A DNA stretch of 64,000 bases from Clostridiaceae bacterium BRH_c20a (GCA_000961765.1 LADT01000042.1:40907-104906), one strand, 5' to 3'. Numbered from the stretch's first letter, positions 12,105-30,021 are shown. Program-made: numbers and translations. The notes: generated by a model not told the origin, from the letters alone.

Positions 12105-12110
12105 CCCCCC

Positions 12111-14691: not shown

Positions 14692-15306
14692 TTAGCGAAG
14701 GCTTCTTGTGGCCAGGCTAACCTCGTAAATTCGCTTCACCATTACAGACAATTCAGCCTGGGCTCCCTGATCATCACTGGAGGGCTTTTGCGCTGCCACT
14801 CCGCAATGACCCGGCTTATCACTTCTATAGCTAGGATTGACTACAGTAATTCCTTGAATCAGCATAATATCCTGGATGGTACGCAAGGTTCCTTCCTGAC
14901 CTCCAAACCGCGAAGCACCCACGGCCACAGCACCACCAACTTTGTTTAGTAAAACCTTGCCCGTCCACATATAACGGGCCTTGTCCCAAAAGGCTTTTAG
15001 CTGAGCACTTACTGTGCCGAAGTATACCGGAGAGCCTACAATAATTCCATCTGCTTCCCTTAGCAGCTGGTGAACTTCATAGAGGGGACTGTCCACCACA
15101 CAGGCTCCCCTGCAGGGGGTTGAACAATTGGTGCAAAAGGGAACGGGAAACTGGTTCATGATTTCACCCGCCTGAATCAAGCAGGTAAGACCACCCATGG
15201 CCTCAACCTGTTCCATTGCTTTATTTAGCAGATATGCAGTGTTGCCATCTTTAATAGGGCTTCCATTTATACCCACAATAAATACAGGTTTCTCTCTTTC
15301 CAACAT
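14692..15306 (-). CDS. Flavodoxin-like FMN reductase / iron-sulfur flavoprotein family
   Basis: 204 aa. Contains VGINGSPIKDGNT, the Cys cluster CTNCSTPCRGAC, and GSPVYFGTVSAQLKAF. Confidence 0.65.
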   Translation of the reverse strand: MLEREKPVFIVGINGSPIKDGNTAYLLNKAMEQVEAMGGLTCLIQAGEIMNQFPVPFCTNCSTPCRGACVVDSPLYEVHQLLREADGIIVGSPVYFGTVSAQLKAFWDKARYMWTGKVLLNKVGGAVAVGASRFGGQEGTLRTIQDIMLIQGITVVNPSYRSDKPGHCGVAAQKPSSDDQGAQAELSVMVKRIYEVSLATRSLR

Positions 15307-15327: not shown

Positions 15328-16755
15328 TTATTTTAACTCTTTGAGGATCTGGACCACCCATTCCCTAGAAGTTCTGGTTTCCGCAGCCAGGAAGTCCACT
15401 TCCTCCTTACTTACATGGGTAATCTTGCTGCTTTCAAGTGAATTGCGGAGGTATGAGCGGCGTAATTTGCCCAAGGACTGGTCAGTCACTTGAAGCTGTG
15501 AAAAACGCTCCGGAATGACTATTGTTTTCCCCGGAACATTCTCTGCGGGGTCACCTCTTCTGATTTCAACGCCCATATTCTTGGCAAAATTCAACTGTGC
15601 CATAGGATGCTTTCCGGCCCCAGTGTATTCTGTTTCCTGGACAACAACTATTTCATCCTGGTCATATTCACTGGCAATTGCCAGGGCTGCAGCCAGGGAA
15701 GTATTGCCAGCGGGACCCCGCTCAAGTCCTTCTACTTCAGCCAAGGCCTGAGTGACATAGAAAACCTCTCCCTGGGTAACTGTAACATAACGGTCCAGGT
15801 AACGCAGAGGCCTAGCCGCACTCCGGGGAACATCGGTCCTGTCCGGCCAGGAAGCAAAGGGTACACCAAAGCCTGTATGCCCGGTGGTAAATGACTTACG
15901 GTTAAAATCATAGTCAGAGGCCATATGTAATCCCATCAGATCAACACTGACCCCAATTACCTTAGTATCAATACATCCGGCTTTCAACAGACCTCGAGCC
16001 GTTCCCGTTACATTGCCTCCCCCTGCGTGGGTGACAATAACAGCGGCCGGGTCCTGGCTATATCTTTCCCTTACCTGTCCGGCCAACTCATAGCCTAAAG
16101 TCTCCACCCCTGATATGCCTAGTGGGCTGTATAGGGATGCATTGAAAAATCCTGTCTCTTCTAAAAGAAGCAGAGACATGTAAAAAAGCTCCGGCCCAAC
16201 GGTCAACTGGATAACCTCCGCACCTAACGCCTCGCATTTACGGGTCTTTTCAATTATCTCAGGCTGTCCAATATGTTTGGAATCAAATACCTCTTGAACA
16301 ATGATGCACTTTAATCCCCTCATTGCAGCCTGAGAAGCGACAGCGGCCCCATAGTTGCCGCTGGTTGCAGCTATTACACCGGGATAACCTTTTTCACGGG
16401 CATGATAAACAGAGATGGAGGCCCGTCTGTCCTTAAAGCTCCCCGCAGGATTTGCGGCCTCGTCTTTGACCATAATCCGAGCCCCTTTTCCCGACGGCGA
16501 ATTGGCCCGGACCAGGGCTGTGAGATTTTTGAGCTCGAACAAGGGGGTATTGCCTACACCCGCCTGTTTCTGAATGGCCGCTGTTTCCTCCAGAGAATAA
16601 GCAGTATTATTCATCATTCCTTCATAATCAAAGGCTAGGGGCGATATTTCAAAGGCAGCGTAATCTATTCCTAAGGCTTTGTTCATTATGTCGTTTTTCC
16701 TGCCCAACACAGACCCATAAGATATGTCCTTTGTCAATTTTCCTTCACCCCCCAT
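15328..16755 (-). CDS. ortB: 2-amino-4-oxopentanoate thiolase beta subunit-like (PLP enzyme, OrtB family)
   Basis: 475 aa. Trp-synthase-beta-fold PLP motif NPAGSFKDRRA and ATSGNYGAA. Overlaps the upstream ~100-aa OrtA-like ORF by 22 nt. Confidence 0.8.
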   Translation of the reverse strand: MGGEGKLTKDISYGSVLGRKNDIMNKALGIDYAAFEISPLAFDYEGMMNNTAYSLEETAAIQKQAGVGNTPLFELKNLTALVRANSPSGKGARIMVKDEAANPAGSFKDRRASISVYHAREKGYPGVIAATSGNYGAAVASQAAMRGLKCIIVQEVFDSKHIGQPEIIEKTRKCEALGAEVIQLTVGPELFYMSLLLLEETGFFNASLYSPLGISGVETLGYELAGQVRERYSQDPAAVIVTHAGGGNVTGTARGLLKAGCIDTKVIGVSVDLMGLHMASDYDFNRKSFTTGHTGFGVPFASWPDRTDVPRSAARPLRYLDRYVTVTQGEVFYVTQALAEVEGLERGPAGNTSLAAALAIASEYDQDEIVVVQETEYTGAGKHPMAQLNFAKNMGVEIRRGDPAENVPGKTIVIPERFSQLQVTDQSLGKLRRSYLRNSLESSKITHVSKEEVDFLAAETRTSREWVVQILKELK

Positions 16756-17045
16756 AGCTGCTCCCGCAGTTCTGAACCGATACGCTGAAGTTCTGCCACC
16801 GCTGGCCCAAAACTCTGAGTATAACCGGGGTTGACCTCGGTTAGTTCTCCCTGGATTATCCGCCCTGTTACGGTTTTAATTGAGCAAAGCTGTCCTTTTT
16901 CACATTCATCCAGTGCAAAACCTTTTATCCACATTTCAAAGGGTACTGTACGTGTTTCTTCCGGCAGGGAAGCAAGCCTATCCTGAACTTCAAAAATTAT
17001 CCCATGAACCTCTACCCAGTCCCCTGGTTTACATTTTAAATCCAT
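16734..17045 (-). CDS. ortA: 2-amino-4-oxopentanoate thiolase alpha subunit-like (OrtA family)
   Basis: 103 aa. The pattern GDWVEVH...VPFEMWIKGF...TVTGR...G.L.EVNP.Y...FG matches my memory of OrtA. Sits directly upstream of OrtB. Confidence 0.7.
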   Translation of the reverse strand: MDLKCKPGDWVEVHGIIFEVQDRLASLPEETRTVPFEMWIKGFALDECEKGQLCSIKTVTGRIIQGELTEVNPGYTQSFGPAVAELQRIGSELREQLWGVKEN

Positions 17046-17061: not shown

Positions 17062-18414
17062 TTACCACCCTTTAACCATATCTAAAACGTTGTCCGGCAC
17101 CTTACCACTAATGGCATCGGCAATTGCCCCTTCCAAAATAGATATTCCCCGGTCAAGCTCCTCTTGTGTAATTACTAGCGGCGGACAAATTCTTAAGACT
17201 GACCCGCTGAAGAAAGTAAGATAAAGTCCTTGTTCATAACAACGCCAGACTATTTTGGCCGCCAGATCCCGGGCTCTTTCCCGGGAAGATCTATCTTTAA
17301 CAAGATCCACACCTATCATAAAACCCTGTCCCCGTACCTGACTGATCTGTTCATATTCTTCCGCAAGACGGTTAAATCTTTCTCTGATGTAACGACCCAT
17401 TTCCTCCGTTTTCTTTAATAACCCTTCCCGGCGAATTATGCCAATAGTCGCTAGGGATGCAGCACAACAAATTGGATTACCTGAAGTACAGAAGACATGT
17501 CCCGGTGAAGTCCAGGCTTCAAAAATCTCCTTCCTAGCTACCAAGGCAGATAATGGCATCCCTGAGGCTAGTGCTTTGCCAATTACAATGATATCAGGCT
17601 CAAGATTAAAGTGTTCTATACCAAACCATTTCCCGGTGCGGCCCATGCCGGTCTGAACTTCTTCCGAGACAAAAAGAATCCCATGCTTCTTACAAAAATC
17701 ATAGAGATACTGCATATACTCCTGGGGCGGAATTATTATACCCGAATCTCCCTGAATGGGCTCCATGATTACAGCAGCCACTTCATCAGGTGAAAACAGA
17801 GTTTCAAACATCCCAAGAAAGTACTGATAGCAGGCTAAGCCGCATCTCTCGGCATTCTGGTGTCCTAGGGGGCACCGATAACAGTCAGGGTAGGGGACGT
17901 GATAAATTTCTGGTACCCCAGGACCGAAGTGATAACGCATGGGTAAACTGACCGCTGAAATGCCCATGGCGCCATAGGTATTGCCATGATAAGAACGCAA
18001 AAAGGCTATGATTTTCTGGCGTCCCGTATAAGCCCTGGCCGCTTTAATTGCCCCGTCATTGGCATCTCCACCGGAGACACCATATGCCACTCTTTTCTCA
18101 AAGTTCCCCGGGGTTATTACTGTTAGCTCTTCTGTAAGCTCTGTCAGTTTTTCGTGGAAAGCATATGCGGGGTTACAGTGGATTAAGGATTCTGCTTGTT
18201 CTTTAATTGCCTCTACCACTGCCGGGTGATTGTGGCCAACGTTTGAGATGGCGCCGAAGGAAAGGAAATCAATGTATTTCCTACCTTCCAGGTCCTCTAA
18301 AACAGCACCCCTGCCGGACTTCACAACTAAGGGAAAAAAGGGAATGCGGATAGAGCGGGAAAGCAGTTTCTCATCCTTATCAATTATAGACCGGGTTTTA
18401 TTACTGATATCCAT
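17062..18414 (-). CDS. Class-III (omega-) aminotransferase
   Basis: 450 aa. Contains SGGDANDGAIK, DEVQTG-type SEEVQTGMGRTG, and the PLP-lysine context IVIGKALASG. Confidence 0.85.
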   Translation of the reverse strand: MDISNKTRSIIDKDEKLLSRSIRIPFFPLVVKSGRGAVLEDLEGRKYIDFLSFGAISNVGHNHPAVVEAIKEQAESLIHCNPAYAFHEKLTELTEELTVITPGNFEKRVAYGVSGGDANDGAIKAARAYTGRQKIIAFLRSYHGNTYGAMGISAVSLPMRYHFGPGVPEIYHVPYPDCYRCPLGHQNAERCGLACYQYFLGMFETLFSPDEVAAVIMEPIQGDSGIIIPPQEYMQYLYDFCKKHGILFVSEEVQTGMGRTGKWFGIEHFNLEPDIIVIGKALASGMPLSALVARKEIFEAWTSPGHVFCTSGNPICCAASLATIGIIRREGLLKKTEEMGRYIRERFNRLAEEYEQISQVRGQGFMIGVDLVKDRSSRERARDLAAKIVWRCYEQGLYLTFFSGSVLRICPPLVITQEELDRGISILEGAIADAISGKVPDNVLDMVKGW

Positions 18415-18441
18415 AAACTAACCCCCTTTACACTTGATAAA

Positions 18442-19455
18442 TTAATCTAGTTTAACTTTTTGCCCAATCTTCCGGGCTAAGGCCTCTTGGTATACATGCC
18501 AGCCGCTCAGGACATCTTGGGCCGCTGTTCCGACACTCTTAAAAAGGGTGTAATCCTCCGGTGTGCGCCGCCCCTCTACTGAGCCCATCAGGACGTGCCC
18601 CAGTTCAATAACTTGTTCCTCTTTAATCAGGCCCTGGGCTAGCGGACGAGCCAGGTCTCCGGGGACAAAGGCAGCAGGCTTACTATCAACTGTAATAATA
18701 CTGGAGGCCTGTACCAGTTCCTCATCGATTTCCTGCATAGAGGAGCTAAATGAGCCAGTGGCATTAACATGGGTTCCCGGCTTTAGCCATTCTTTCCGGA
18801 CAATAGGCTCATAGGATGTAGTGCAAGCACAGATAACATCACTCTGGTTACATAATTCCGCAGCTGAAGTACAGATTATTATTTCTACGGGTCTGGCTGC
18901 TTTTTCCGTCAATTCCTTCAGTTGGCCGACTAGGGTTTCCACTTTACTAAGGGTCCGGGAATAGAGCAAAATCTTTTCGATGGGTCTTACTGCCAAGACA
19001 GCCTCGGCCTGATGGAAGGACATACTCCCTGCTCCCAGTACTCCCAAGGTAGACGCCTCTGGTCGGGCTAAGGCCGCGGTAGCCACAGCCGAAGCTGCTC
19101 CCGTTCGGATTGCCGTCAGGTAAGTAGCATCCATAACTGCTTCCAGTTGGCCAGTCTTATTATTAACAAGCATTAAAGATCCTATGGTTGCCGGTAGTCC
19201 CTGGGAGGGGTTTTCCGGAAACAGCGAAACGATTTTGACACTTAACAATTCTTCATCCCCCACCAAGCCGGACATAACCAGCATATCTGCTTCCTGTGAA
19301 GGGATGGAGACTTGGTGCCGTTGGGGAACGTTGACCTTTTTGTCTGCTATGTTAATAAACGCCTTGGATGTAGCTTCTATTGCTGCTTTTATTGGGAAAA
19401 GCTGTCGAACTTCAGCTTGGTTTAAAATTAACAAGCTATCAACTCCCGTTTTCAA
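18442..19455 (-). CDS. Ornithine cyclodeaminase / mu-crystallin family NAD(P) enzyme
   Basis: 337 aa. Contains DATYLTAIRTGAASAVAT and the Rossmann motif LGVLGAGSMSFHQ. Confidence 0.8.
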   Translation of the reverse strand: MKTGVDSLLILNQAEVRQLFPIKAAIEATSKAFINIADKKVNVPQRHQVSIPSQEADMLVMSGLVGDEELLSVKIVSLFPENPSQGLPATIGSLMLVNNKTGQLEAVMDATYLTAIRTGAASAVATAALARPEASTLGVLGAGSMSFHQAEAVLAVRPIEKILLYSRTLSKVETLVGQLKELTEKAARPVEIIICTSAAELCNQSDVICACTTSYEPIVRKEWLKPGTHVNATGSFSSSMQEIDEELVQASSIITVDSKPAAFVPGDLARPLAQGLIKEEQVIELGHVLMGSVEGRRTPEDYTLFKSVGTAAQDVLSGWHVYQEALARKIGQKVKLD

Positions 19456-20717
19456 TATTTGTTTTTATATGCCAACTGGCGAATGGCCTCTGCCAATACT
19501 GTCACCCCTGCCATGCATTGACTAGGGGATGTATACTCTTCCCCGCAATGGCTTCTGCCCCCAGTGCTGGGTACGAAGAGCATGCCGATTGGGGCAAAAC
19601 GAGCCGCCATAATGGCATCGTGCCCGGCACCACTAACCATTTCATGATAGTCAAGTCCGGCCTTACGAGCCGCCTCAGCTAAAATATCCCTTAATATTGG
19701 ACTACAAGGCACCGGTTCCACCGCCAGTATATTTTTCCATTCCACTAGTACGCCCGTTTGGGCTGCTACTTTTAGGGTCTCTTCCTCCAATTGACTATAC
19801 AAACCCTTTAGTTTTTTGGGATCAGGGTCCCGCATATCAATGGTAAAAACCGTCTCAGCGGCCACAACATTTACAGCCCCGGGGTTAGCTGAGATTCTGC
19901 CTACAGTAAATACGGTATCTCCCCCGGACTGTCGGACACATAAATCCATGGCCCCAATCATCTTGGCCGCGGCCAATAAAGCATCATGCCGCATTCCCAT
20001 GGGCGTAGTGCCCGCATGGTCACTGCGTCCCCTGATAGTGAGTTCTGCCTGTCTCATGCCCGTTATACCACTTACTATACCTATTGGACAACCCTTGGCT
20101 TCGAGTACGGGCCCTTGTTCAATGTGCAGTTCCAAAAAGGCTTCTACATCCGATCGTGGGGTAGAACCGGAAGGGGAGAGACTATAGCCAAATGCTTGAG
20201 CAGCGGCTTTCAGGGAAATACCGTTTTCATCCACTTTAACTAACTCTTTTTCTTCCAAATCACCGGCCATCCATTTACTGCCCATAAGACCGCTGAACCT
20301 GCTGCCCTCCTCGCCGATAAAGGCGATAACTTCAATAGGATTCTGCGGTCGGCCATAGGTTTTCAGCAGGTAGCCTGCTGCAATTATGCCACCTGCAACA
20401 CCCAGCATCCCATCATATATTCCTCCACCTCTAACTGTGTCAAGGTGTGAACCCATTGTGACAGCCCGGGCCTGGTTGTCTGTACCCTCAATACGGCCAA
20501 TTATGTTGCCAATACCGTCCTTTTTCACCTCAAAGCCGTGTTCTTTCATCCAGCCCGCTACAAGATTGGCCGCCTCCTCATATTCCTGAGTATAGGGGCT
20601 ACGCCACAGGCCAAATTCTCCAATGCCAACCTTTCCTAGTTCCTGCAGATAACTGGAAAGCAAAACTTCATACCCATGTGAATTGAGCTTTTGTAAATCT
20701 TTAGATATTTTCATCAA
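19452..20717 (-). CDS. M20 amidase of the hydantoinase/carbamoylase family (N-carbamoyl-amino-acid / beta-ureidopropionate / allantoate amidohydrolase type)
   Basis: 421 aa. Contains MGSHLDTVRGGGIYDGMLGV, IGEEGSRF and GRSDHAGTTPM. A 4-nt overlap links it to the downstream OCD gene. Confidence 0.8.
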   Translation of the reverse strand: MMKISKDLQKLNSHGYEVLLSSYLQELGKVGIGEFGLWRSPYTQEYEEAANLVAGWMKEHGFEVKKDGIGNIIGRIEGTDNQARAVTMGSHLDTVRGGGIYDGMLGVAGGIIAAGYLLKTYGRPQNPIEVIAFIGEEGSRFSGLMGSKWMAGDLEEKELVKVDENGISLKAAAQAFGYSLSPSGSTPRSDVEAFLELHIEQGPVLEAKGCPIGIVSGITGMRQAELTIRGRSDHAGTTPMGMRHDALLAAAKMIGAMDLCVRQSGGDTVFTVGRISANPGAVNVVAAETVFTIDMRDPDPKKLKGLYSQLEEETLKVAAQTGVLVEWKNILAVEPVPCSPILRDILAEAARKAGLDYHEMVSGAGHDAIMAARFAPIGMLFVPSTGGRSHCGEEYTSPSQCMAGVTVLAEAIRQLAYKNKY

Positions 20718-20720
20718 GTG

Positions 20721-21467
20721 CTAACCTCCCTGAAAAATTCCAAGCCCCTTTTTTAAGCTATCCATTAAGGCACAATCGGGAGCAGAGCCAGTATCTCGCA
20801 AACCTAAAATATCGAGAAATGCCCAGAAAATAGCTAGATTGGTAGAAACCACTGGGATGCCCAGGTCGTGCTCCAAGGGAGCTATTACTTCTAAGGTCCG
20901 TAAGTCTGTGGCCAGGATGCAGAGAGCATCAGCCCCTTTAAAACCCATAGCCCTAGCTTCCCGGTAGAGGCTTTCCGGGGTTACCCTTGTTACTGCATGA
21001 TAATCATCAATATCCAAACTTTTTAAGGCCACCGGGTTTAGACCCCATTCCTGAAAGTAAGGGGCTACAAGAGGCTGAATTGTAGAAGGATAAGGTGTAA
21101 GCACAGCCACATTTTTGGCCTGAAGCTCAATCAAGGCTTTGGCAGTGCATTGGGCGGCAGTAATCAATTCCACTCCCTGCCCCTGTATACGCTCCTGAAA
21201 GGAGCAATCCCACTGTTTTCCTTTGACCAGGCTGGTTGACATGCAGGCATAGACAATAACGTCCACCTGGGAAAGAGCAAGTTCACCAGTACCACGGGAA
21301 GCCTGGGTTTCCATGCGGTTCAAAGCTTCTGAATTAAAGGCTCCCTCCACAATCATTCGTGTGGCAAAAGCCGCCGCCCCTTCAGGTAAGACTTTACTCA
21401 TTTCGGGTTCAATAATAGTATTATTGGCAGGAATCAAAAGACCAAGTTTACCTCTCCACCCGTACAT
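20721..21467 (-). CDS. Asp/Glu/hydantoin-racemase superfamily enzyme (maleate-isomerase / arylmalonate-decarboxylase-like)
   Basis: About 248 aa from MYGWRGKLGLLIPANNTIIEPE (RBS GAAAGGA). Two candidate catalytic Cys (VYACMSTS; ALCILATDL) sit at the spacing known for maleate isomerase. Confidence 0.7.
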   Translation of the reverse strand: MYGWRGKLGLLIPANNTIIEPEMSKVLPEGAAAFATRMIVEGAFNSEALNRMETQASRGTGELALSQVDVIVYACMSTSLVKGKQWDCSFQERIQGQGVELITAAQCTAKALIELQAKNVAVLTPYPSTIQPLVAPYFQEWGLNPVALKSLDIDDYHAVTRVTPESLYREARAMGFKGADALCILATDLRTLEVIAPLEHDLGIPVVSTNLAIFWAFLDILGLRDTGSAPDCALMDSLKKGLGIFQGG

Positions 21468-21547
21468 TTTAACTATCATCCTTTCACTATGCCCAAGGCA
21501 CAAAAACTAATGATGTCATCTCATTCTCAATTCTCCATTTTCAATTT

Positions 21548-22912
21548 TCAATTCCTAGAAACACTCTCTCCGTAACCGGGTTTTACAATTATAGTGCCGC
21601 TGTCATATACCCATTTCCCCCGGACCATGGTTTTCTCAACCCTACCCTGGAGTGTTACTCCCTCAAAAGGAGTCCATTTCGATTTGCCCAGCAGTGCCTT
21701 TCCTTGGACCTTCAAACTGACCCTAGGGTCAACTATGGCTAGGTCAGCATCTACCCCCGCAGCTATGGTCCCCTTGCGGGGGTAAAGGCCTAGCCAACGG
21801 GCAGGCTGTTCAGACATAAGGTTGACGATATTCTCTATGGTAATTCTTCCTCGACTGGCGGCATCCAGCATTAGGGGCAAAGCTGTTTCTAAGGTGGGGA
21901 CACCACTGGCCCCTTTCCAGATATCCTCTTTTCCTGCTATCTTTTCTTCCCAGCTATGGGGTGCATGATCTCCGCCAATCATGTCGATTGTGCCATCAAC
22001 AAGCTCGGTCCACAGAGCTTTAACCATGTCTGCTTCCCTAAGAGGCGGAGCCATCTTAGCTGCCGGTCCTAAACGAAGCATGTCATCGGTGTTCAGAAAA
22101 AGATGATGGGGATTTACTTCGATCTTAATATCTGCCAAAGACTTTAAAGCTTTATAAGCTTTTATTACGTTAAGTGCCTCCATTGTGCTTATCTGCCGAA
22201 ATAGAAGCCGGACATTTGTTACCCTAGCTATTTGAGTGATGCGGGCCACCTCGGCAGCTTCCGCCACCGGTGGTCTGGCCTGTACCCAGGCCAGGGGATC
22301 TATCCGGCCACTATTTTGTAAGTGCTCTGTTTCGGCAGCAACTATGCTGGCATCGGTGGCATAAACAGCCACCGGCAGTCCCAGCTGGACCGCGTTCCTA
22401 AAAATTTGCAAGTAATGGGCTCCATCTCTAACCAACCACCCCTCAGGTACATCGCAGGCAGCAACATCCAAGATAATGGCTCCTGCATTTTTTAGAGCTA
22501 CCAAATTTTTGATGTTTTGAGGGGTCACTTGGGCACTCACCCCAAAGTCAACTACACAACGGTCCTGACCCAATTCCAGTAAATTCCTGATACTGGCGCT
22601 ATCGACAGCAGGGGGAGACGTATTAGGCTGTGCCACCACAGTTCCATACCCCCCGGCCGCAGCTGCACAGGTCCCGGTGTAGAAATCCTCCTTTTGGGTA
22701 TAGCCGGGGTCCCGCAGGTGTACATGTGTATCAACTAGAGCAGGAATTACCAGTTTACCCTCGGCATTATAATAGCCGTCAGCTTCCGGCACATTTGAAC
22801 AGTCGGAAATAGCAATGATACGGCCGTTCTTAATGGCGAGATTGGCTTTACCCCTCCAGGAGGAGGTTACTACCTCTCCATTCATCACCACATAATCAAA
22901 CAAACCTGTCAC
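21548..22912 (-). CDS. Cyclic amidohydrolase (dihydroorotase / dihydropyrimidinase / allantoinase-like)
   Basis: 454 aa. The metal motif VDTHVHLRDPG and ...AQPNTSP parallel the operon-encoded PyrC (IDMHVHLREPG...MPNTNP), but the protein is longer and divergent. Confidence 0.8.
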   Translation of the reverse strand: MTGLFDYVVMNGEVVTSSWRGKANLAIKNGRIIAISDCSNVPEADGYYNAEGKLVIPALVDTHVHLRDPGYTQKEDFYTGTCAAAAGGYGTVVAQPNTSPPAVDSASIRNLLELGQDRCVVDFGVSAQVTPQNIKNLVALKNAGAIILDVAACDVPEGWLVRDGAHYLQIFRNAVQLGLPVAVYATDASIVAAETEHLQNSGRIDPLAWVQARPPVAEAAEVARITQIARVTNVRLLFRQISTMEALNVIKAYKALKSLADIKIEVNPHHLFLNTDDMLRLGPAAKMAPPLREADMVKALWTELVDGTIDMIGGDHAPHSWEEKIAGKEDIWKGASGVPTLETALPLMLDAASRGRITIENIVNLMSEQPARWLGLYPRKGTIAAGVDADLAIVDPRVSLKVQGKALLGKSKWTPFEGVTLQGRVEKTMVRGKWVYDSGTIIVKPGYGESVSRN

Positions 22913-22970
22913 CCCTTCTTGAAACTAATATTCATGCTGCAATTATCTTACATCTCAGCTTTTTCTTTAA

Positions 22971-24269
22971 TTACCTGGTTATGCCCACGCTATCAGGATA
23001 GGTAATGCTAGGCAGATAAAGGGTCAATTCTGGCCAGTAGGTGATTAAAAGCAGGGCAATGAGAGTTACAGCTATAAAAGGCAGTACTGCTGGAATTATC
23101 TTGACCATAGGCACTTTGGTAACACCTGTAGCAACAAATAAGTTTAAGCCAAAGGGCGGTGTATACATACCAATTGCTAGATTTGCCGTCAGCACAACAC
23201 CCAGATGAACGGGGTTAATGCCCATTTTCATTGCCATTGGATAAATCAAAGGAGCAAGAATGGTAACCGCCGCCGCTCCATCCATAAACATCCCGGCAAC
23301 TAAAAAGAGAACGTTGATAGACAACCAGAAGACTATCTGAGTGGTATTGGGACCCAGCATCATTTCTGCTAAGAGCTGCGGGGCCTGGTTAACGGTAAGA
23401 ACCCAGCCAAAAACTGAAGCTCCAGCTACCAAAACCATGACACCCGCCAGGGTTATAGTGGACTCGAGAGCCGTTTCTAGCAGAGACTTCCAAGTGAACT
23501 CCTTGTAAACATACATCCCCACGAAGGCAGCATATACAGCCGAGACACCGGCTGACTCTGTGGGAGTAAAGACCCCTGTATAAATTCCACCGAGAATTAT
23601 AAAAGGAACTCCAAGAGCCCAAGCCGCATCCTTACCTGTCCGAACAATTTCCTTTAAGCTAAAATGTGAATCAGGCTGGCGCTTTCCTTTGACGGCTACA
23701 TAATAGGAGTAGGCTAGGATAGAAATTCCGAATATTATACCGGGTATAATGCCAGCCACAAATAAGGCGCCGATGGAAACTCCAGTAACCGTACCATAAA
23801 CTATCAGAGTTATGCTGGGGGGAATTAGAATAGCTACAGCACCGCTAGCAGTAATCAAACCAACGGCAAAGGCACTGTCATATCCCTTTTTTGTCATTTC
23901 GGGATACATAAACCCGCCCATGGCGGCAACAGTGGCTGGGCTTGAACCAGAAAGGGCTCCAAAAAACATACAAGCCAACTGGGTAGTAAGAGCCAGACCC
24001 CCACGCATAAAACCAGCTAAGCAGAGGGTAAACTCCAAAAGCCTTTGGGCAATACCTCCTCTACGCATTATGTCTGCAGCAAAAATAAAAAAGGGCATAG
24101 CCATCAAGGAAAACTTATCAATTCCGGCAAACATCCGCTGAGCCACAACGGAGGTTGGTATATCACTACCAAAGATTAATGCCAAAAGAGGGGCAAAGGA
24201 TAGTGCGATAAAAATAGGCACCCTAGCAAAAAGCATGAAAAAAAGAACCAAAAGCATAGAAAGAATCAT
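22971..24269 (-). CDS. TRAP transporter large permease subunit (DctM family), system 2
   Basis: 432 aa polytopic protein. Paralog of 2016-3293 and contiguous with a DctQ-like ORF. Confidence 0.9.
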   Translation of the reverse strand: MILSMLLVLFFMLFARVPIFIALSFAPLLALIFGSDIPTSVVAQRMFAGIDKFSLMAMPFFIFAADIMRRGGIAQRLLEFTLCLAGFMRGGLALTTQLACMFFGALSGSSPATVAAMGGFMYPEMTKKGYDSAFAVGLITASGAVAILIPPSITLIVYGTVTGVSIGALFVAGIIPGIIFGISILAYSYYVAVKGKRQPDSHFSLKEIVRTGKDAAWALGVPFIILGGIYTGVFTPTESAGVSAVYAAFVGMYVYKEFTWKSLLETALESTITLAGVMVLVAGASVFGWVLTVNQAPQLLAEMMLGPNTTQIVFWLSINVLFLVAGMFMDGAAAVTILAPLIYPMAMKMGINPVHLGVVLTANLAIGMYTPPFGLNLFVATGVTKVPMVKIIPAVLPFIAVTLIALLLITYWPELTLYLPSITYPDSVGITR

Positions 24270-24755
24270 TTACTGCTCCCCTCCTTCTTTAAAAGTTAAG
24301 TAAAAATGCTGAGAAAATCTAAGAGCTCCCAGACCAAAGCCCAGCGGCAGACAAAAGTACACCAAGTAAAAAGGCAGTTGTAAGGCAGGTGATTTCTGGG
24401 CTGTAGCCATCTGCTTACTCACCGTCTCAAAGCTGTAAAAAATCATCATTACACAAAAAACAATAGAGACCAGGTCAGCAAATAAAGTCATGTACCTCTG
24501 ATTCTTCTTGCTGAGAAATGCGGCAAAAAAATCGATGCTGACATGGGCATTCTTACGGGCATTGAGACCGATCCCAATAAAAGTAGCCCAAATAATAAGA
24601 TAGCGGATTAATTCTTCAGACCAAGGCAAACCCGCTTTAAAGACATAACGCAGAACCACGTTAATAAACATCAGCGCTGTGGCTAGTATAAAGCCCAGCG
24701 AACAAAACCATTCTTCAGCTTTGCCAATTAAAGTGTTAAGCTTTTCCATGGACAT
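24270..24755 (-). CDS. TRAP transporter small permease subunit (DctQ family), system 2
   Basis: 161 aa, 4 TM, positioned between the DctP-like and DctM-like genes. Confidence 0.8.
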   Translation of the reverse strand: MSMEKLNTLIGKAEEWFCSLGFILATALMFINVVLRYVFKAGLPWSEELIRYLIIWATFIGIGLNARKNAHVSIDFFAAFLSKKNQRYMTLFADLVSIVFCVMMIFYSFETVSKQMATAQKSPALQLPFYLVYFCLPLGFGLGALRFSQHFYLTFKEGGEQ

Positions 24756-24860
24756 ACCACCTTGTTGTTTTGAATTTTAATTTTTTTAAAAAAGGAGAGG
24801 CTCCTTCTGGCAGCCCCTCCCTGGAGGTCTTAATGGCATGATTCAATTCTTGGCTTCCTA

Positions 24861-25928
24861 TTATTTATTGGCTTCCTCAGCGGCTTTCTGGAGCTCAGTT
24901 ACCATATCTGCGCCAACGCGGCCGGAAACGAACTCAACAACAGGCTTGGAGGCAGCTTGGAAAGCCGTAAGTTCTTGCTCACTTGGAACGTATACTTCCA
25001 TCTTGTTCTTTTTCAGTTCTTCCAGCCACTTATCGGAGTTGGTCTTCATCTCTTCCCACTCGGACTTGGAAGCGAATATAGCAGCCTCACTAACATTCTT
25101 CTGAATATCTGCAGGCAGTCCGTCAAACCACTGCTTGTTGGCTACAGTAATATACAAGAAGGGAGCGTGGTTGGTCACGGTTACAACCTTCTGAACTTCC
25201 CAAAGCTTCAGCATGACAAGAGTCTGAAAGCCGTTCTCTTGCCCATCAACAACTTTTTGCTGGAGAGCGTTGTACATTTCACCGTACTCGATAGGAGTAG
25301 GATTTGCTCCAAAAGCCTTATAGGTCTCAATTAGGATAGGTGCTGGCATAACACGGAACTTCATACCTTTTAAAGCTGCCGGTCCTTTGATGGGGACGTT
25401 GGCTGTCATCTGCTTTAAACCACCGGTTTCCATTCCCAGTGCAACCATACCCTTTTCTTCTAGCCCCTTATTGATTTTAGCTGCGGCAGGACCAAACATA
25501 ACTTCCTGAGCTGCATCCATGTCTTTGAATAAGAAAGGAATATCATAAACCTCTAAGGCTTGGTTAAAGTTAGAAAGCACGGAAGTAGGCTGCTGGGTCA
25601 TTTCGATAGTACCGTTGGCAGCTTGCTCAGCTTGCTCTCTCATCTGTCCCAACTGCATATTGGGGAAAATAGTTACCTGAACCTGACCGTTACTGAGTTC
25701 TTCCACTTTTTGTTTAAAGGCTTCTACGCCGCGATGCTGCGGGCTGTTAGTATCCTGATTATGACCAAATTTAATTTTGTAAGTTTTTGCTTCCTTAGCA
25801 GGCGCCGGGTCAGACTTGGAGTCAGGCGCCGGAGCAGGTGTTGGATCAGGTTTTGAACAACCTGCCAATGCTAAAACTAAGACTGCTACCAAACACACAA
25901 CAATAAGCTTTTTAAAGTTAAACTTCAT
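24861..25928 (-). CDS. TRAP transporter substrate-binding protein (DctP family), lipoprotein, system 2
   Basis: Start trimmed to MKFNFKKLIVV (RBS AGAGGAGGAA). Lipobox LALAGCS, a Pro/Ala-rich linker, then a DctP-like body. Confidence 0.85.
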   Translation of the reverse strand: MKFNFKKLIVVCLVAVLVLALAGCSKPDPTPAPAPDSKSDPAPAKEAKTYKIKFGHNQDTNSPQHRGVEAFKQKVEELSNGQVQVTIFPNMQLGQMREQAEQAANGTIEMTQQPTSVLSNFNQALEVYDIPFLFKDMDAAQEVMFGPAAAKINKGLEEKGMVALGMETGGLKQMTANVPIKGPAALKGMKFRVMPAPILIETYKAFGANPTPIEYGEMYNALQQKVVDGQENGFQTLVMLKLWEVQKVVTVTNHAPFLYITVANKQWFDGLPADIQKNVSEAAIFASKSEWEEMKTNSDKWLEELKKNKMEVYVPSEQELTAFQAASKPVVEFVSGRVGADMVTELQKAAEEANK

Positions 25929-26062
25929 TTTTATTCCTCCTCTTTTTTTCAATCAAATTTTGTTTGTCTTAAATAGGAAAACGCAACACGGGACAGCTTC
26001 CTCTCATCACCTCCTTAAATGACCTGACCTTACTTTACTTAAAAACAAATCCGATGAATTGG

Positions 26063-26974
26063 TCAATTCCGAGTGTGGGCAGCTCCCACTAGGCTGTTAA
26101 CATCTTCTATCCCTTTTTCTTCTAAATATTGTTCAAGCCCTGCTAAAATTTTAGGCGCAGCCATGGGGTCGAAAAAGTTAACTACACCCAACGCCACTGC
26201 CTGAGACCCTGCCAAAAGAAACTCAATGACATCACGGACATTGGCAATTCCCCCCATCCCGATAATGGGTATCTTCACGTTTTGGTATACCTGGTAAACA
26301 AGGGCGACAGCAATGGGACGGATAGCTGGCCCCGAGAGGGCTCCCATCACATTTCCCAAAAATGGCTTTCTTGTTTCTATATCAATCATCATAGCCCTGG
26401 GAGAGTTGATCATAGAGATAGCATCAGCTCCAGCAGCTTCTACAGCCTTGGCAACCTCGATAATATTGGACTGATCAGGGGGAAGCTTGGGGATTAAGGT
26501 CAGCCCTGTTTTCTTTCGGGAAAGAGCTACCACCTTGTAAGCCATATCCTTGTTAGCCCCAAACTGCAGACCTCCTGCCTTCACATTGGGACAGGAAAGG
26601 TTTAATTCAATCCCCGCCAGAAAGCCCAACCCATCACTTAGTTCAACTATCTCGGCATATTCTTCTTCAGTCCGTCCCACAACACTTAAAATAACTGGGG
26701 TCTTAAGTGCTTTAAGCTTAGGTACATCCTCGCTGACAAACATTTCCCAGCCTTTACTGGGTATACCCACTGCGGAAAGGACCCCGGAGGGGGTTTCTGT
26801 TATCCTCGGAGGAGGATTGCCAGGCCAAGAATAAGCCCGGACTGTCTTTGGAACAAAGGCGCCGAGTATATCAGGAGAATAAAGGCTCTCATAATCCAGA
26901 CTATGGCAGCCTGAACCTGTTGTTATGGGATTTTGCATTTTTATTTTACCAATCTTTACGGAAAGATTAACCAT
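26063..26974 (-). CDS. pyrD: Dihydroorotate-dehydrogenase type 1B catalytic-subunit-like flavoenzyme (PyrD-like; possibly an orotate/pyrimidine reductase)
   Basis: Start trimmed to MVNLSVKIGKIKMQNPITTGSG, giving an 8-nt overlap with the pyrK-like stop. Contains the active-site motif IELNLSCPNVKAGG and the FMN-binding tail IIGMGGI. The IGLQNPG-type loop is divergent (VGIPSKG). Confidence 0.75.
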   Translation of the reverse strand: MVNLSVKIGKIKMQNPITTGSGCHSLDYESLYSPDILGAFVPKTVRAYSWPGNPPPRITETPSGVLSAVGIPSKGWEMFVSEDVPKLKALKTPVILSVVGRTEEEYAEIVELSDGLGFLAGIELNLSCPNVKAGGLQFGANKDMAYKVVALSRKKTGLTLIPKLPPDQSNIIEVAKAVEAAGADAISMINSPRAMMIDIETRKPFLGNVMGALSGPAIRPIAVALVYQVYQNVKIPIIGMGGIANVRDVIEFLLAGSQAVALGVVNFFDPMAAPKILAGLEQYLEEKGIEDVNSLVGAAHTRN

Positions 26975-27788
26975 TTGAGACCACCTCCCAGGACAAGAAA
27001 ACAGGTCCTTCTTTACATACCCGCTTATAACACCTGCTCTTCTGATCCTGACCTTGATATAGTTCAACCACACAACCCTGACAGGCTCCTAGTCCGCAGG
27101 CCATATACTGGTCTAGGGATATCTGGGCATTAATTCCCTGCCGGTGAGCCAGGTGGTGGATATTTTTAATTAAACTGCAGGAAGGACAGAAGTCGCATAA
27201 TCCTCCCATATAAATCTGATCCAGCTTGATCTTACCAGCTACCCGTTCCAACTCCTTTGTCATAAATGGACCACATCTCCAGGCACCGTTGTCCGGGTAG
27301 AATAACAATTCACCTTTTCCTTCAAGGAAGCTAAAAGAGTGCAAAAGCTCAGTGTATTTCGAGCTTAGGAAAGCATATACCCCCACTCCCTTTGCTGCAG
27401 CCTGATCAATTAAGGCAGCTAAGGGACCTATGCCTGTATCTCGACCCAAAACCGCAATATTTTTAGCTGAAGCAGGAAGGGTAAAGCCATTACCCAAGGG
27501 GCCCAATATTGAACAAGTATGACCTGGTTCCCAGGTCGTCATAATCTCAGTACCCTGGCCTACAACCTTGTATAGGATATCAATAACCCCTTCTTCCTTA
27601 TAGATTCTCGAGACCGTTAACGGCCTTCTGAACAAAGGATCGGTCTGTTCAGTTAGCCGGAGCATTACAAACTGTCCGGGAACAATGATGCGGGCTATTT
27701 CCGGGCACTCTAATTTAATCAGCCAGAAATTTTCCATAACTTTGCTATTTTCTAATACTTTACCACTGATATCATACTTTTTGTCCAT
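26967..27788 (-). CDS. pyrK: PyrK-like FAD / 2Fe-2S electron-transfer subunit
   Basis: 273 aa. Ferredoxin-reductase fold with the C-terminal motif MACGLGACQGC...C..GPVF. Confidence 0.75.
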   Translation of the reverse strand: MDKKYDISGKVLENSKVMENFWLIKLECPEIARIIVPGQFVMLRLTEQTDPLFRRPLTVSRIYKEEGVIDILYKVVGQGTEIMTTWEPGHTCSILGPLGNGFTLPASAKNIAVLGRDTGIGPLAALIDQAAAKGVGVYAFLSSKYTELLHSFSFLEGKGELLFYPDNGAWRCGPFMTKELERVAGKIKLDQIYMGGLCDFCPSCSLIKNIHHLAHRQGINAQISLDQYMACGLGACQGCVVELYQGQDQKSRCYKRVCKEGPVFLSWEVVSNG

Positions 27789-27846: not shown

Positions 27847-28056
27847 TCAAGAACGGCGTAAGCATAAAATAAAATTGCCTCGAGCATCCAGCCTGACCAA
27901 TAAGCCCAGTTCCTCCACATAAGGTTTGACTATGTTTTTAATAAATTCCTGGACCATAGGCTCATTTTCAAAGAGCTCCGCCTGAGGACTAGGAATCCCT
28001 AGGATCTTCTGGGTAATCTCAATTATTTTTGAGCCCTCACTTAGCTGTTCAACCAA
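27847..28056 (-). pseudogene. Remnant of an M20 peptidase gene (N-terminal ~65 codons only)
   Basis: The 69-aa ORF ITQKILGIPSPQAELFENEPMVQEFIKNIVKPYVEELGLLVRLDARGNFILCL aligns without gaps to LTLDLVSRPSTQTDKMEYDPEIKSFISDTLMPELKKRGLNSVELDDMGNLICRV of the M20 at 8920-10101. Like that gene, it lies directly downstream of an AOR gene. Confidence 0.5.
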
Positions 28057-28119: not shown

Positions 28120-30021
28120 CTAGAGCTTTACCCACTCAAGGTTTAATTTTTCGAGAGTTTCTTTTTTAGGAATTCCTGTATCAGTATCCCAGTTCATAGC
28201 TGTATAATACTGCTCTAGCAAATTCCTTAAATCTTCTGGGCTCACTCTTTCTCCGCTGCCCGGTCCATCGGGAACAGGTTCTTCCATTAAACGTCCCGGC
28301 AAGGTATCATCTGCTGAAGTAAACCCTTCCCGGATGTTGTAGCAGCGCTCCAAGGTATTAATTCGGGCTGCCGCAGTGTAAAGATCCTCAATAGTATAAG
28401 TGTGGCCAAGGGCCGCACTGAGAAGTTCACTCCAGTTCTGCCAGTCAAAACTCCGGTTGTAAGCAAAAGTACAGTTGGGTCCGCTATCCTGAATAATCCT
28501 TAGGGCAGCATGCCTTTTCACCAGTTCCCCTTTGCCTTCTATCTCTTTGTGTATTCCCAACTTAAGTTCCTCAAAAACAGGAAGCCCAATGGCATGGTGG
28601 CAACCGCCTCGGTTGCCGGCGGCAAAGACTATTGCCTGTCCCTTGGCTGTCCTCGGTTCATATCCACCCAACTCCATACCTTTTACATGCATAGCAAAAT
28701 ATTCGCTGCCCTGACCGATTTGTTCAGCCGCCCGTTTGGTTCCCATAGCCAGAAGGGCACCAAACCCTCTCCTGTAAGCGATATCTTCAATAAGGGTCAA
28801 AACCACCTTGCTGTTTCCGAAGCGAACCTCCAACCCCCCTGTATCCTCCCTATCAAGATATCCCCTTTCGAAGCATTCCATGGCAAAAGCAATAGATACT
28901 CCCGCAGAAATGGTGTCAAGCCCCAGCTCATCACAGAGTTGATTTGCCGCTATAATTGCCTCCGGGTCTCCAATACCGCAAGCAGAACCCAAAGCAAAGA
29001 TAGATTCATACTCAGGTCCGTCGCAACTTGCCCCGGCAAAAGGGCCTTCTTTTACTAGGGTCAGCTTGCCGCAGCGCAAGGGGCACCCAAAGCAGCCTGT
29101 ATCTTTAACAACCAGCCCCAGGTTATCCCGCATATAATTCATGGAGATATCCCGAGCCTTAGAGAAGGTACATTGAGCCCAGTTGGATGTAGGCAGCCCT
29201 CCCAAAGCGCTGCGGGCTTCTTGGGACTCTCCTGTACCGTAGCGGGCAAAACTGTCGCCATTGCCGGGCTTTGCCTTAAAGTCTGTCATAATTCTTTTAA
29301 AAATCTGCTTATATTGCCCCGGATCAGCCATGCTAATCTGTTTATGTCCCTTTTCCACCATTATTGCTTTAAGGTTTTTACTTCCCATAACGGCGCCTAG
29401 ACCACCCCGGCCAAACTGGCGCCAATCATCGGTACTGACACCCGCATAAGGAATGAGGTTTTCCCCGGCAGGTCCTATGATGGCCCCGGAGAAACTTGAA
29501 CCAATTTCGTTTTTTAGATGGTATAGGGCTAGGGTGGTACCCATCCCCCACAAATATTGGGCTTCCCTGACTTTGATGCCATCGGGAGTAATCAGTAAAT
29601 TAACAGGCTTTTCTGCTTTTCCTTCAACTATGATAATATCATATCCTGCCTGGCGCATATTAGCTCCCAATCTTCCGCCAGCCATTGTGTACATATATGT
29701 CCCGGTAAGGGGGGATTTCGTTAGCATAATTACCCTAGAAGCTGTTGGAAAACCAGTGCCAGTAAGGGGTCCCGTAGCTAGAATCACCTTATTTTCAGGC
29801 GAAAGTGCCTCAATAGCTGGTCCCACTTCATCCCACATAATTTTAGCACCAAGGCCCCGGCCGCCAATAAATCTTGAGACGGTCTCTTGGTCAATCTTTT
29901 CGATTTTGCTGGTACCACTGCTTAAATCAACCCTTAACACTCTGCCGAAATCAGACACAATATTCACCCCTATTTTCCCCAAGATGTTTTTTCCAAAAAG
30001 TGAAAATACCACTTTCAACAA
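28120..30021 (-). CDS. Aldehyde:ferredoxin oxidoreductase family tungsten-pterin enzyme (AOR-3)
   Basis: 633 aa ORF. Contains GGRGLGAKIMWD and CFGCPLRC, with a distal Cys in GPNCTF. The true start may be the GTG near 29958 (RBS AGGGGTG), giving M-SDFGRVLRVDL. No adjacent ferredoxin gene. Confidence 0.85.
   Translation of the reverse strand: MLKVVFSLFGKNILGKIGVNIVSDFGRVLRVDLSSGTSKIEKIDQETVSRFIGGRGLGAKIMWDEVGPAIEALSPENKVILATGPLTGTGFPTASRVIMLTKSPLTGTYMYTMAGGRLGANMRQAGYDIIIVEGKAEKPVNLLITPDGIKVREAQYLWGMGTTLALYHLKNEIGSSFSGAIIGPAGENLIPYAGVSTDDWRQFGRGGLGAVMGSKNLKAIMVEKGHKQISMADPGQYKQIFKRIMTDFKAKPGNGDSFARYGTGESQEARSALGGLPTSNWAQCTFSKARDISMNYMRDNLGLVVKDTGCFGCPLRCGKLTLVKEGPFAGASCDGPEYESIFALGSACGIGDPEAIIAANQLCDELGLDTISAGVSIAFAMECFERGYLDREDTGGLEVRFGNSKVVLTLIEDIAYRRGFGALLAMGTKRAAEQIGQGSEYFAMHVKGMELGGYEPRTAKGQAIVFAAGNRGGCHHAIGLPVFEELKLGIHKEIEGKGELVKRHAALRIIQDSGPNCTFAYNRSFDWQNWSELLSAALGHTYTIEDLYTAAARINTLERCYNIREGFTSADDTLPGRLMEEPVPDGPGSGERVSPEDLRNLLEQYYTAMNWDTDTGIPKKETLEKLNLEWVKL

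Follow-up and report, generated by a model that had tools for sequence, protein, structure and literature searches.

What does a bacterium break down with a set of genes in which a dihydroorotate dehydrogenase (DHODH)-like reductase is linked to a carboxylate transporter and to hydrolases of the hydantoin type? The question is raised by a locus of Clostridiaceae bacterium BRH_c20a (GCA_000961765.1, LADT01000042.1:40907-104906; a stretch of 64,000 nucleotides, 'the window' in what follows), in which a reading made from the sequence alone had picked out eight co-oriented genes at 19452-27788: a PyrK/PyrD-like reductase pair, the DctPQM subunits of a tripartite ATP-independent periplasmic (TRAP) transporter, a cyclic amidohydrolase, a protein of the Asp/Glu racemase superfamily and an M20-family N-carbamoyl-amino-acid amidohydrolase. 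Open reading frame (ORF) calls and family profiles bear this out, with all eight frames on the minus strand and in the same orientation, and we find the same order again in independent genomes. Judged by sequence comparison, the enzymes of the locus are paralogues that have diverged from those of pyrimidine biosynthesis and hydantoin utilisation, and the locus is best placed as an uncharacterised member of reductive cyclic-ureide catabolism; tentatively, we believe that it serves the anaerobic, reductive ring degradation of an orotate-like heterocyclic (pyrimidine-type) carboxylate, probably not orotate itself.

A gene order shared between lineages

The eight genes are just the middle of a longer operon of about 17 kb (Table 1): the genes themselves were called correctly, their extent was not, as five more genes lie to the 3' side of the M20 gene (14692-19434; overlapping or no more than about 30 bp apart) and an amidohydrolase / aldehyde:ferredoxin oxidoreductase (AOR) pair to the 5' side. 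The five encode a protein of the ornithine cyclodeaminase (OCD) family, a pyridoxal phosphate (PLP) enzyme of class-III aminotransferase fold, OrtA, OrtB and an FMN reductase.

Three further metagenome-assembled genomes (MAGs), all of Bacillota, carry the operon as well (L007, L004 and L013). The first of these (L007, equal to L012) has the same gene order, with proteins 68–89% identical to those of the window; in addition, it carries an intact M20-family gene (M20b) between the genes for AOR and PyrK, and a Fer4/AOR gene pair after that of the flavoprotein. AOR1 of the window is 85% identical to its L007 counterpart in the same position, and the M20b remnant that follows it (27847-28056) indicates a deletion of about 1 kb in the lineage of the window. 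Orthologues of the Fer4 and AOR2 genes stand directly after the operon in both L007 and L013; in the window they are split off from it by formamidase-like and Vut_1 genes. In L004 we see genes for a PucR regulator, M20b, PyrK/PyrD, DctPQM, the hydrolase, the Amdase-family protein, the OCD-family protein, the class-III enzyme, a TRZ/ATZ amidohydrolase and a Fer2 plus MoCoBD enzyme, with neither OrtAB nor the 420-amino-acid carbamoylase. In L013 the positions of PyrK/PyrD and the TRAP transporter are taken by an APC permease and an M24 hydrolase; these are followed by the hydrolase, the Amdase-family protein, the carbamoylase, the OCD-family and class-III enzymes, OrtAB, Fer4-AOR and the TRZ/ATZ amidohydrolase.

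The order PyrK-PyrD-DctPQM-hydrolase is thus kept in three lineages, with PyrD 83–89% identical, and this repetition of gene order in independent MAGs tells us that the arrangement is not one of chance. The hydrolase and Amdase-family genes, accompanied by those of the OCD-family protein and/or the carbamoylase, also occur together in Proteobacteria, Chloroflexota and Acidobacteria.

The reductase pair belongs to a Ser/Thr-type subfamily

The start of the pyrD-like gene overlaps the end of the pyrK-like gene (26967-26974). Its product exceeds the class-1B cut-offs (NF005574, 338 versus 269 bits; TIGR01037, 298 versus 270 bits) and aligns end to end with the Lactococcus lactis enzyme DHODB (1EP1; 244 bits, 42% identity), an alignment in which the catalytic Cys ('ELNLSCPNVK') and Lys ('VPKT') are both present. 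Three of the four Asn residues that hydrogen-bond to the orotate ring are likewise in place; the other (Asn72 of the 1EP1 alignment) is replaced by Ser ('VLSAVG' for 'MLNAIG'), and after the fourth Asn the segment 'SPRA' stands instead of 'TLMG'. The replaced residue, Asn67 in the class 1A numbering, is among those given as contacting orotate in PMC12060061. The Asn is kept in L. lactis DHODB, as it is in the PyrD proteins of two operons built around an orotate-type solute-binding protein (SBP; see below). The PyrK-like partner carries the Fe-S domain PF10418, with a Cys cluster motif evident in the translation, and falls below all four PyrK equivalog cut-offs (best score 127 bits versus 219–314).

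Set against class 1B DHODH (L. lactis DHODB, PDB 1EP1-3), the pair is alike in its two subunits, its overlapping genes, the Cys, Lys and three Asn residues and the Fe-S domain of PyrK, and unlike in the Ser, the 'SPRA' segment, the low-scoring PyrK and the placing of its genes, which lie among those for transport and hydrolysis and outside the pyr operon. The 'orotate reductase' of Clostridium oroticum belongs to class 1B PyrK/PyrD. That the window pair should be the orotate reductase of orotate fermentation, as had been suggested, is not supported, given that an orotate-contacting Asn is replaced by Ser.

This replacement is not peculiar to the window: Ser or Thr occupies the position in 109 of the 120 nearest cluster representatives. 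Many of these relatives are proteobacterial, and their genes adjoin those of molybdenum (Mo) hydroxylases, M20b and TRZ/ATZ-type amidohydrolases; the Asn-keeping relatives that we examined sit with canonical PyrC/PyrB or within the orotate-SBP operons. Taken together, the comparison suggests that DHODH-like reductases of this type form a large subfamily, as yet without a name, which is tied to Mo/tungsten (W) enzymes and occurs in Bacillota and many Proteobacteria.

Two Ser/Thr-type PyrK/PyrD clusters were looked at individually, one around a Pusillimonas caeni protein (L011 280-10963) and one in a Rhizobiales MAG (L094 874-12522). They contain a three-domain Mo hydroxylase of the xanthine dehydrogenase type, a TRAP or major facilitator superfamily transporter, M20b, a GntR regulator and an asparaginase; the TRZ/ATZ-type amidohydrolase of the Rhizobiales cluster is 34% identical to that of the window. 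A PyrD encoded on a metagenome contig of high G+C (L096 7450-13211) is of the Asn type and shares 56% identity with the window protein. On this contig the order is class-III PLP enzyme, small ORF, PyrK, PyrD, canonical PyrC and an aspartate transcarbamoylase-like protein, the opposite of the usual biosynthetic order, and a divergent regulator gene of the PucR family lies alongside.

A ring hydrolase with ligands for one metal, a single-Cys Amdase-family protein and an intact carbamoylase

The cyclic amidohydrolase is nearest overall to L-hydantoinase (1GKR, 259 bits; dihydroorotases, 189 bits) and yet retains the dihydroorotase motifs HVHLRDPG, QPNTSPP and GDHAPH, which L-hydantoinase lacks. 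In dihydroorotases the Arg after HxH, the Asn of 'PNT' and the His of 'DHAPH' hold the ring carboxylate. The ligands of the alpha-metal are present (HxH in 'DTHVH', the bridging carboxylate in 'ILDVA' and the strand-8 Asp in 'GDHAPH'), whereas both His ligands of the beta-metal are gone, as comparison with 1GKR, 3HM7 and the dihydroorotase of Aquifex shows: one is changed to Tyr ('AVYATD') and the other to Gln ('FRQIST'). Close homologues share these losses; the window's own PyrC, a separate and canonical paralogue, has both His residues. The assignment of the protein to the cyclic amidohydrolases thus stands (TIGR00857), that to a typical binuclear hydrolase does not.

The neighbouring Amdase-family protein, whose true start is a Met downstream of that of the longest ORF, had been credited with the two-Cys arrangement of maleate isomerase. 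This arrangement is absent: Cys75 is invariant, but Ala stands where maleate isomerase has Cys194, both in the window protein and in all of its close relatives. A Cys found three residues upstream of that position co-varies with the loss of the canonical one, more distant relatives reading 'SCT'. Nor does the protein score as an arylmalonate decarboxylase (NF052327, 74 versus 225 bits); the Cys that it retains is the first and not the second.

In the alignment of the M20 protein with the L-carbamoylase 3N5F (265 bits), none of the metal-binding or catalytic motifs is lost ('GSHLDTV', 'YDG', 'GEEGSRF', 'ELHIEQG', 'DHAGTTPM' and 'GAGHDA'); with TIGR01879 at 402 bits against a cut-off of 204, its earlier description as an N-carbamoyl-amino-acid amidohydrolase can be made more exact, as an intact enzyme of the L-carbamoylase type.

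As a group, the three resemble the hydantoin-utilisation (hyu) triad of the Arthrobacter aurescens type, in that 1GKR and 3N5F are the best structural matches and a gene of the racemase superfamily lies between the other two. They differ from it in the dihydroorotase-type motifs and missing second metal site of the hydrolase, and in the middle gene: the hyu hydantoin racemase is a two-Cys enzyme, whereas the window protein has a single canonical Cys and falls in the Amdase/maleate-isomerase branch.

The transporter and the orotate-binding protein family

The window DctP keeps the equivalents of the carboxylate-clamping Arg173 ('KFRVM') and of Asn213 ('GQEN'). Its second-best solved relative, at 34% identity, is 4NN3, a TRAP binding protein crystallised with orotic acid (PMC11668362). 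It scores equally well against C4-dicarboxylate DctPs, whereas members of the 4NN3 family are about 70% identical or more among themselves; the idea of orotate import through an orthologue of this binder is therefore not upheld. A search with the 4NN3 sequence leads to neighbourhoods that hold PyrK/PyrD, M20 proteins of the NF006771 subfamily and PyrC or PyrE. The Maridesulfovibrio operon (L092 10001-16090) adds to DctPQM an M20 ureido-amidohydrolase and a dihydroorotase of the dimer type, PyrK/PyrD being encoded a few kilobases off (4621-6333), and in Pseudooceanicola marinus (L093 10001-16676) the order is DctPQM-PyrK-PyrD-M20-PyrE. We regard these operons as a candidate gene set for the catabolism or salvage of orotate. 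Pleasingly, then, the combination of TRAP transporter, PyrK/PyrD and carbamoylase that the sequence-only reading had proposed does occur in nature, around a family whose binding of orotate is experimental.

The window shares with these orotate-SBP operons (4NN3; Maridesulfovibrio salexigens and P. marinus) DctPQM, PyrK/PyrD and an NF006771 M20, with or without a dihydroorotase. The orotate-SBP operons differ in that they encode a PyrD of the Asn type, together with PyrC of the dimer type or PyrE, and lack genes for Amdase-family, OCD-family or class-III proteins or OrtAB; their proteins are only 30–43% identical to those of the window. Orotate fermentation is a matter of enzymology that dates from the 1950s. 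The literature searched contained nothing relevant on an orotate catabolic gene cluster or on genes for orotate reductase or ureidosuccinase, and a pathway encoded by a TRAP-PyrKD-carbamoylase operon was not found described.

Partner enzymes

The OCD-family protein has as its best PDB matches pyrroline-2-carboxylate reductase (6T3E, 209 bits) and then alanine dehydrogenase (1OMO, 158 bits). The class-III-fold enzyme is much closer to amino-acid racemases and epimerases, archaeal ones included, than to transaminases, scoring 431 bits with isoleucine 2-epimerase, 416 with a broad-specificity racemase, 355 with an Ala/Ser racemase and at most 289 with transaminases.

OrtA and OrtB both exceed their equivalog cut-offs (109 versus 70 and 826 versus 550 bits). 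These are the subunits that the window has in common with the oxidative ornithine degradation cluster of Stickland clostridia (orr, oraSE, ord, ortAB), unlike the partner genes of that cluster: no genes for ornithine aminomutase, 2,4-diaminopentanoate dehydrogenase or ornithine racemase are seen among the annotated ORFs of the window, the first two being likewise absent from L007 and L013. Some other source of a keto-amino acid is therefore needed. The substrate of OrtAB, an alpha-amino-gamma-keto acid, is not supplied by a route from orotate to aspartate, and a literature search on OrtAB outside ornithine metabolism returned just papers on Clostridioides difficile or ornithine.

On the 5' side, the TRZ/ATZ-type amidohydrolase has homologues at 38–39% identity in L004 and L013 and at 34% in the Rhizobiales cluster; a Fer2 plus MoCoBD enzyme replaces or accompanies AOR1 in L004 and L013. 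Elsewhere, an Amdase-family gene is directly followed by one for a class-III-fold PLP enzyme in a Thermococci MAG (L066 1610-3815), and another adjoins OrtAB, in convergent orientation, on an Armatimonadetes contig (L014 242-2849).

A proposed route

How might these enzymes work together? In what follows, every substrate and the order of the steps are inferred from the family assignments, residue changes and synteny that we observe. DctPQM, by its family, would import the acid. Electrons from NADH would pass by way of the FAD and [2Fe-2S] cluster of PyrK to the FMN subunit, there to saturate a ring C=C beside a carbonyl—the chemistry of DHODH in reverse, as suggested by family and by the conserved catalytic Cys and Lys. 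The hydrolase, in which the carboxylate-holding residues are kept, would open the ring; having a single metal site, it may for that reason attack a C=N or otherwise activated bond in place of a plain amide. The Amdase-family protein, always encoded adjacent to the hydrolase, would invert a stereocentre or remove a malonate-type carboxyl group. The carbamoylase would then split off the carbamoyl group of its predicted substrate as CO2 and NH3, to yield an L-amino acid. The class-III-fold enzyme would racemise this amino acid; OrtAB, with CoA, would cleave an alpha-amino-gamma-keto acid to an acyl-CoA and alanine (acetyl-CoA, were the acid 2-amino-4-oxopentanoate). Lastly, the OCD-family dehydrogenase would oxidise an amino acid or reduce a cyclic imine, so serving the NADH balance, and the amidohydrolase/AOR pair, which recurs in related clusters, may prepare or finish an aldehyde- or amino-bearing form of the compound.

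A published precedent follows the same logic: the reductive urate pathway uses a Mo enzyme, a PF01180 reductase, a TRZ/ATZ-like ring opener, a hydantoinase, an M20 protein and a PLP enzyme (PMC12507026), which makes a reductive route a reasonable reading of our locus. Of the orotate/pyrimidine scheme proposed earlier, it is the succession of import, reduction, ring hydrolysis and decarbamoylation that we retain as the best reading, and the identity of the substrate as orotate that we find unsupported.

Several points weigh against a reductive route for an orotate-like acid. We know of no natural compound that would give 2-amino-4-oxopentanoate in this way, nor can we name a substrate that would make use of every enzyme. 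Cleavage of a dihydroorotate-like ring by a dihydroorotase-type enzyme would be expected to yield a derivative of aspartate, and so nothing that leads into OrtAB; both OrtAB and the 420-amino-acid carbamoylase, moreover, are absent from L004 and so may be accessory. The biosynthetic pyr operon of the window is without pyrK and pyrD. Finally, the meaning that we give to the Asn-to-Ser change for substrate specificity is an assumption that leans on structures of DHODH with orotate and on the place of Asn67 among the published orotate contacts.

A more specific version, which we put forward as doubtful, is that Ser/Thr-type PyrK/PyrD would be a dearomatising reductase of a new kind, dependent on NADH and acting on a heterocyclic acid that is modified at the place where the lost Asn contacts the ring; the one-metal hydrolase would cleave a ring C=N, the single-Cys Amdase-family protein would act as decarboxylase or epimerase, and OrtAB would have been recruited to a role outside ornithine metabolism, in which ring carbons are conserved as acyl-CoA. 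Example substrates are a 2-methyl- or 2-amino-pyrimidine carboxylate, for instance the thiamine pyrimidine in oxidised form, and 4-methyl-2-oxopyrimidine-6-carboxylate, the reduced form of which would open to N-carbamoyl-2-amino-4-oxopentanoate. If this is true, the operon would encode an anaerobic route for an N-heterocycle that was not known before, with a reductase/M20/amidohydrolase core common to many Proteobacteria. Dipicolinate, attractive in principle, was dropped as a candidate substrate: it offers no ureido group to the intact carbamoylase, and the aerobic dip cluster described in the literature relies on oxygenases and bears no relation to this operon. The clostridial ferredoxin-dependent PydAc was rejected as a model on account of its different architecture (PreA-like, with ferredoxin domains).

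Alternative explanations

Plain orotate fermentation is an alternative that we take seriously and nevertheless consider unlikely. Orotate would be taken up, reduced to L-dihydroorotate, opened to N-carbamoyl-L-aspartate and split to aspartate, CO2 and NH3; the OCD-family enzyme would oxidise aspartate or alanine and return NADH, the Amdase-family and class-III proteins would be aspartate or alanine racemases, and OrtAB would act on a D-amino acid derived from aspartate. The architecture is the same as that of the operons around the orotate-binding SBP family, whose M20, like that of the window, falls in NF006771; PyrD passes a DHODH equivalog cut-off and has the catalytic Cys, the Lys and three of the four Asn, and the hydrolase retains the Arg, Asn and His motifs of dihydroorotases. 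Yet the PyrD proteins of the orotate-SBP operons, which keep the Asn, are just 39% identical to that of the window (DctP, 34%), the hydrolase is without both beta-metal ligands used by dihydroorotases, OrtAB has no known role after aspartate, and the related cluster in L013 lacks any reductase. Window DctP and 4NN3 do both have Lys152 and both lack an acidic residue 76, a pairing considered as an 'orotate signature' and rejected, since Lys152 is found also in the succinate-type (C4-dicarboxylate) DctP 4MX6 and does not discriminate.

That we are looking at two unrelated units strikes us as improbable: a biosynthetic DHODH displaced from the pyr operon, next to a hydantoin or N-carbamoyl-amino-acid cluster with its own transporter. 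The pyr operon of the window (49576-58016, minus strand) consists of pyrB, pyrC, carA, carB, pyrF and pyrE. The usual place of pyrK/pyrD in Bacillota is between carB and pyrF, which are here just about 250 bp apart, a point that the sequence-only reading did not raise; the PyrK/PyrD pair of the long operon may therefore be the housekeeping DHODH, either in addition to another role or as its only one. In the same direction point the passing of the DHODH equivalog cut-off by PyrD, the presence in L013 of the block from hydrolase to OrtB with no PyrKD, and the company of canonical PyrC and PyrB kept by the Asn-type relative of 56% identity. Against the 'only', we have the synteny with transport and hydrolase genes kept through three lineages, the loss of a conserved Asn together with a PyrK far under the PyrK cut-offs, and the frequency of the Ser/Thr subfamily in Proteobacteria, where it lies in catabolic-looking Mo hydroxylase clusters and would be a second copy, as Proteobacteria use class-2 DHODH for pyrimidine biosynthesis.

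A Pyd-type reductive route for uracil or thymine, also raised by the sequence-only reading, is very improbable: M20 beta-alanine synthases and carbamoyl-beta-alanine amidohydrolases are indeed among the PDB matches of the carbamoylase (171–190 bits), and the scheme could be completed with the hydrolase as dihydropyrimidinase, the M20 as beta-ureidopropionase, the class-III enzyme as beta-alanine/beta-aminoisobutyrate transaminase, the OCD-family protein (cf. 1OMO) as an alanine dehydrogenase recycling pyruvate and AOR oxidising a semialdehyde, but DctPs with the conserved Arg bind carboxylates, of which uracil and thymine have none, the hydrolase retains the residues by which dihydroorotate is held at its carboxylate, the class-III enzyme is much nearer to racemases than to transaminases, and the OrtAB, racemase-like and OCD genes go unexplained, as they also do on a route from orotate to aspartate.

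Comparison with other known systems

Returning to the reductive route for an orotate-like acid, a counterpart in families and logic is the reductive uric acid pathway (XdhD, YgfK/UacX, SsnA, HyuA, YgeW/UacY, YgeY and YgeX; PMC12507026). The two share a Mo enzyme or its equivalent, a PF01180 reductase, a TRZ/ATZ amidohydrolase, a hydantoinase-type hydrolase, M20 proteins and a terminal PLP enzyme of fold-type II, and a carbamate kinase gene near the window operon adds to the likeness. They differ in that no window protein reaches the cut-off for SsnA (189 versus 444 bits) or YgeY (173 versus 321 bits), in that the window reductase is a PyrK/PyrD pair accompanied by a carboxylate transporter, and in the final PLP enzyme, which is OrtB in the window and diaminopropionate ammonia-lyase in the urate pathway.

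The genes for ectoine and hydroxyectoine use (UehABC/TeaABC, EutA, EutC and DoeD) bring together, as does the window, a TRAP transporter, EutA-like and EutC-like (OCD) proteins and a class-III PLP enzyme, to which the weak DoeA similarity of the M24 hydrolase in L013 may be added. Unlike that system, the window has no EutB, scores far under the EutA, EutC and DoeA cut-offs and assigns ring opening and deacylation to other families.

Three consequences follow for other work. Together with the plainer operons around the orotate-binding TRAP protein, this locus makes the question of the genes for orotate fermentation testable with defined genes. The occurrence of the Ser/Thr-type subfamily in catabolic clusters with Mo/W enzymes suggests that oxygen-independent dearomatisation of N-heterocyclic acids is widespread. 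And annotation pipelines will name these proteins 'dihydroorotate dehydrogenase' and 'dihydroorotase', with the result that pyrimidine biosynthesis may be mis-inferred.

Operon boundaries and neighbouring genes

The minus strand carries every long ORF from about 2 kb to about 58 kb of the window. Within this run the transcription unit likely extends over about 17 kb, from about 31.6 kb down to about 14.57 kb, and holds 15 intact genes. Only two terminator-like hairpins (minus strand) flank it, one at 31665-31641, after a TAXI-TRAP permease gene and before the first operon gene, and the other, strong and with a clean T-run, at 14590-14567, after the flavoprotein gene. A promoter scan gave no signal (26 sites versus 26.8 expected), and at Rfam gathering thresholds no RNA element that might hint at the ligand, riboswitches included, was found in the whole window, with one chance-level match in 27.7-35.1 kb. 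The G+C content is 0.44–0.49 across 14001-30000 and 0.35–0.42 in most of the remaining window, which is consistent with horizontal acquisition of the operon block. An identical contig is present in metagenomes of Opalinus-clay rock porewater.

Table 1. Genes of the operon and related features of the window, with the profile or alignment evidence for each
Feature	Position	Strand	Evidence
TRZ/ATZ-type amidohydrolase ('Deam')	30015..31442	-	aminohydrolase-related, SsnA distantly; PRK06038 275 bits, SsnA 189 bits, all below cut-off
AOR1, aldehyde:ferredoxin oxidoreductase family	28120..30018	-	PF02730/PF01314; overlaps Deam gene
M20b remnant, 69 codons, YgeY/ArgE-DapE-like	27847..28056	-	66% identity over 65 amino acids to L007 M20b N-terminus
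PyrK-like FAD/NAD and [2Fe-2S] electron-transfer subunit	26967..27788	-	PF10418 52 bits, PF00970 27 bits
PyrD-like class-1B DHODH FMN subunit, Ser/Thr type	26063..26974	-	NF005574 338 bits, cut-off 269
DctP TRAP solute-binding protein	24861..25928	-	PF03480 261 bits
DctQ small TRAP membrane subunit	24270..24749	-	PF04290 119 bits
DctM large TRAP membrane subunit	22971..24269	-	PF06808 389 bits
Cyclic amidohydrolase ('DHOl')	21548..22903	-	TIGR00857 331 bits, cut-off 279; best PDB 1GKR 259 bits
Amdase/maleate-isomerase/EutA-family protein	20721..21467	-	PF17645 85 bits; EutA 94 bits, below cut-off
M20 ureido-amidohydrolase, L-carbamoylase/allantoate amidohydrolase type ('M20c')	19452..20714	-	TIGR01879 402 bits, cut-off 204; NF006771 418 bits, cut-off 399
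Ornithine cyclodeaminase (OCD)/mu-crystallin-family NAD(P) enzyme	18442..19434	-	PF02423 226 bits
Class-III-aminotransferase-fold PLP enzyme	17062..18414	-	PRK08360 631 bits, cut-off 608
OrtA, small subunit, 2-amino-4-oxopentanoate thiolase	16734..17045	-	NF040739 109 bits, cut-off 70
OrtB, PLP subunit, 2-amino-4-oxopentanoate thiolase	15328..16755	-	NF040741 826 bits, cut-off 550
FMN-reductase/WrbA-like flavoprotein, last operon gene	14692..15306	-	PF03358 101 bits; 82% identity to L007 protein after OrtB
Fer4 protein and AOR2, outside operon	10245..12515	-	Pfam; AOR2 86% identity to L007 AOR2, 72% to L013 AOR
Intact M20b, YgeY/ArgE-DapE-like, paralogue of the M20b within related operons	8920..10122	-	YgeY 173 bits, cut-off 321; 44–45% identity to L004/L007 M20b, 40–44% to L094/L011

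Beyond the 3' boundary, the genes that separate the operon from Fer4 and AOR2 lie at 12699-14387 (minus strand); they encode a formamidase/acetamidase-like protein and a member of Vut_1, the queuosine-precursor transporter family, and are absent from this place in L007. The adjoining region (977-12515, minus strand) holds genes for EamA, a second DctPQM, an NADH-type flavin oxidoreductase and two Fer4/AOR pairs with the intact M20b between them, which brings the AOR paralogues of the whole window to three. On the other side, a second ureide island (35004-49445, minus strand) encodes the carbamate kinase, an LctP-family permease, two FdrA and AllG pairs and AllH, the AllG, AllH and FdrA proteins being components of oxamate carbamoyltransferase. 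The same island contains a PucR/CdaR-type regulator, a cytosine-deaminase-like amidohydrolase and a ring-opening amidohydrolase of the AtzD/barbiturase family, which scores 352 bits against a cut-off of 360.

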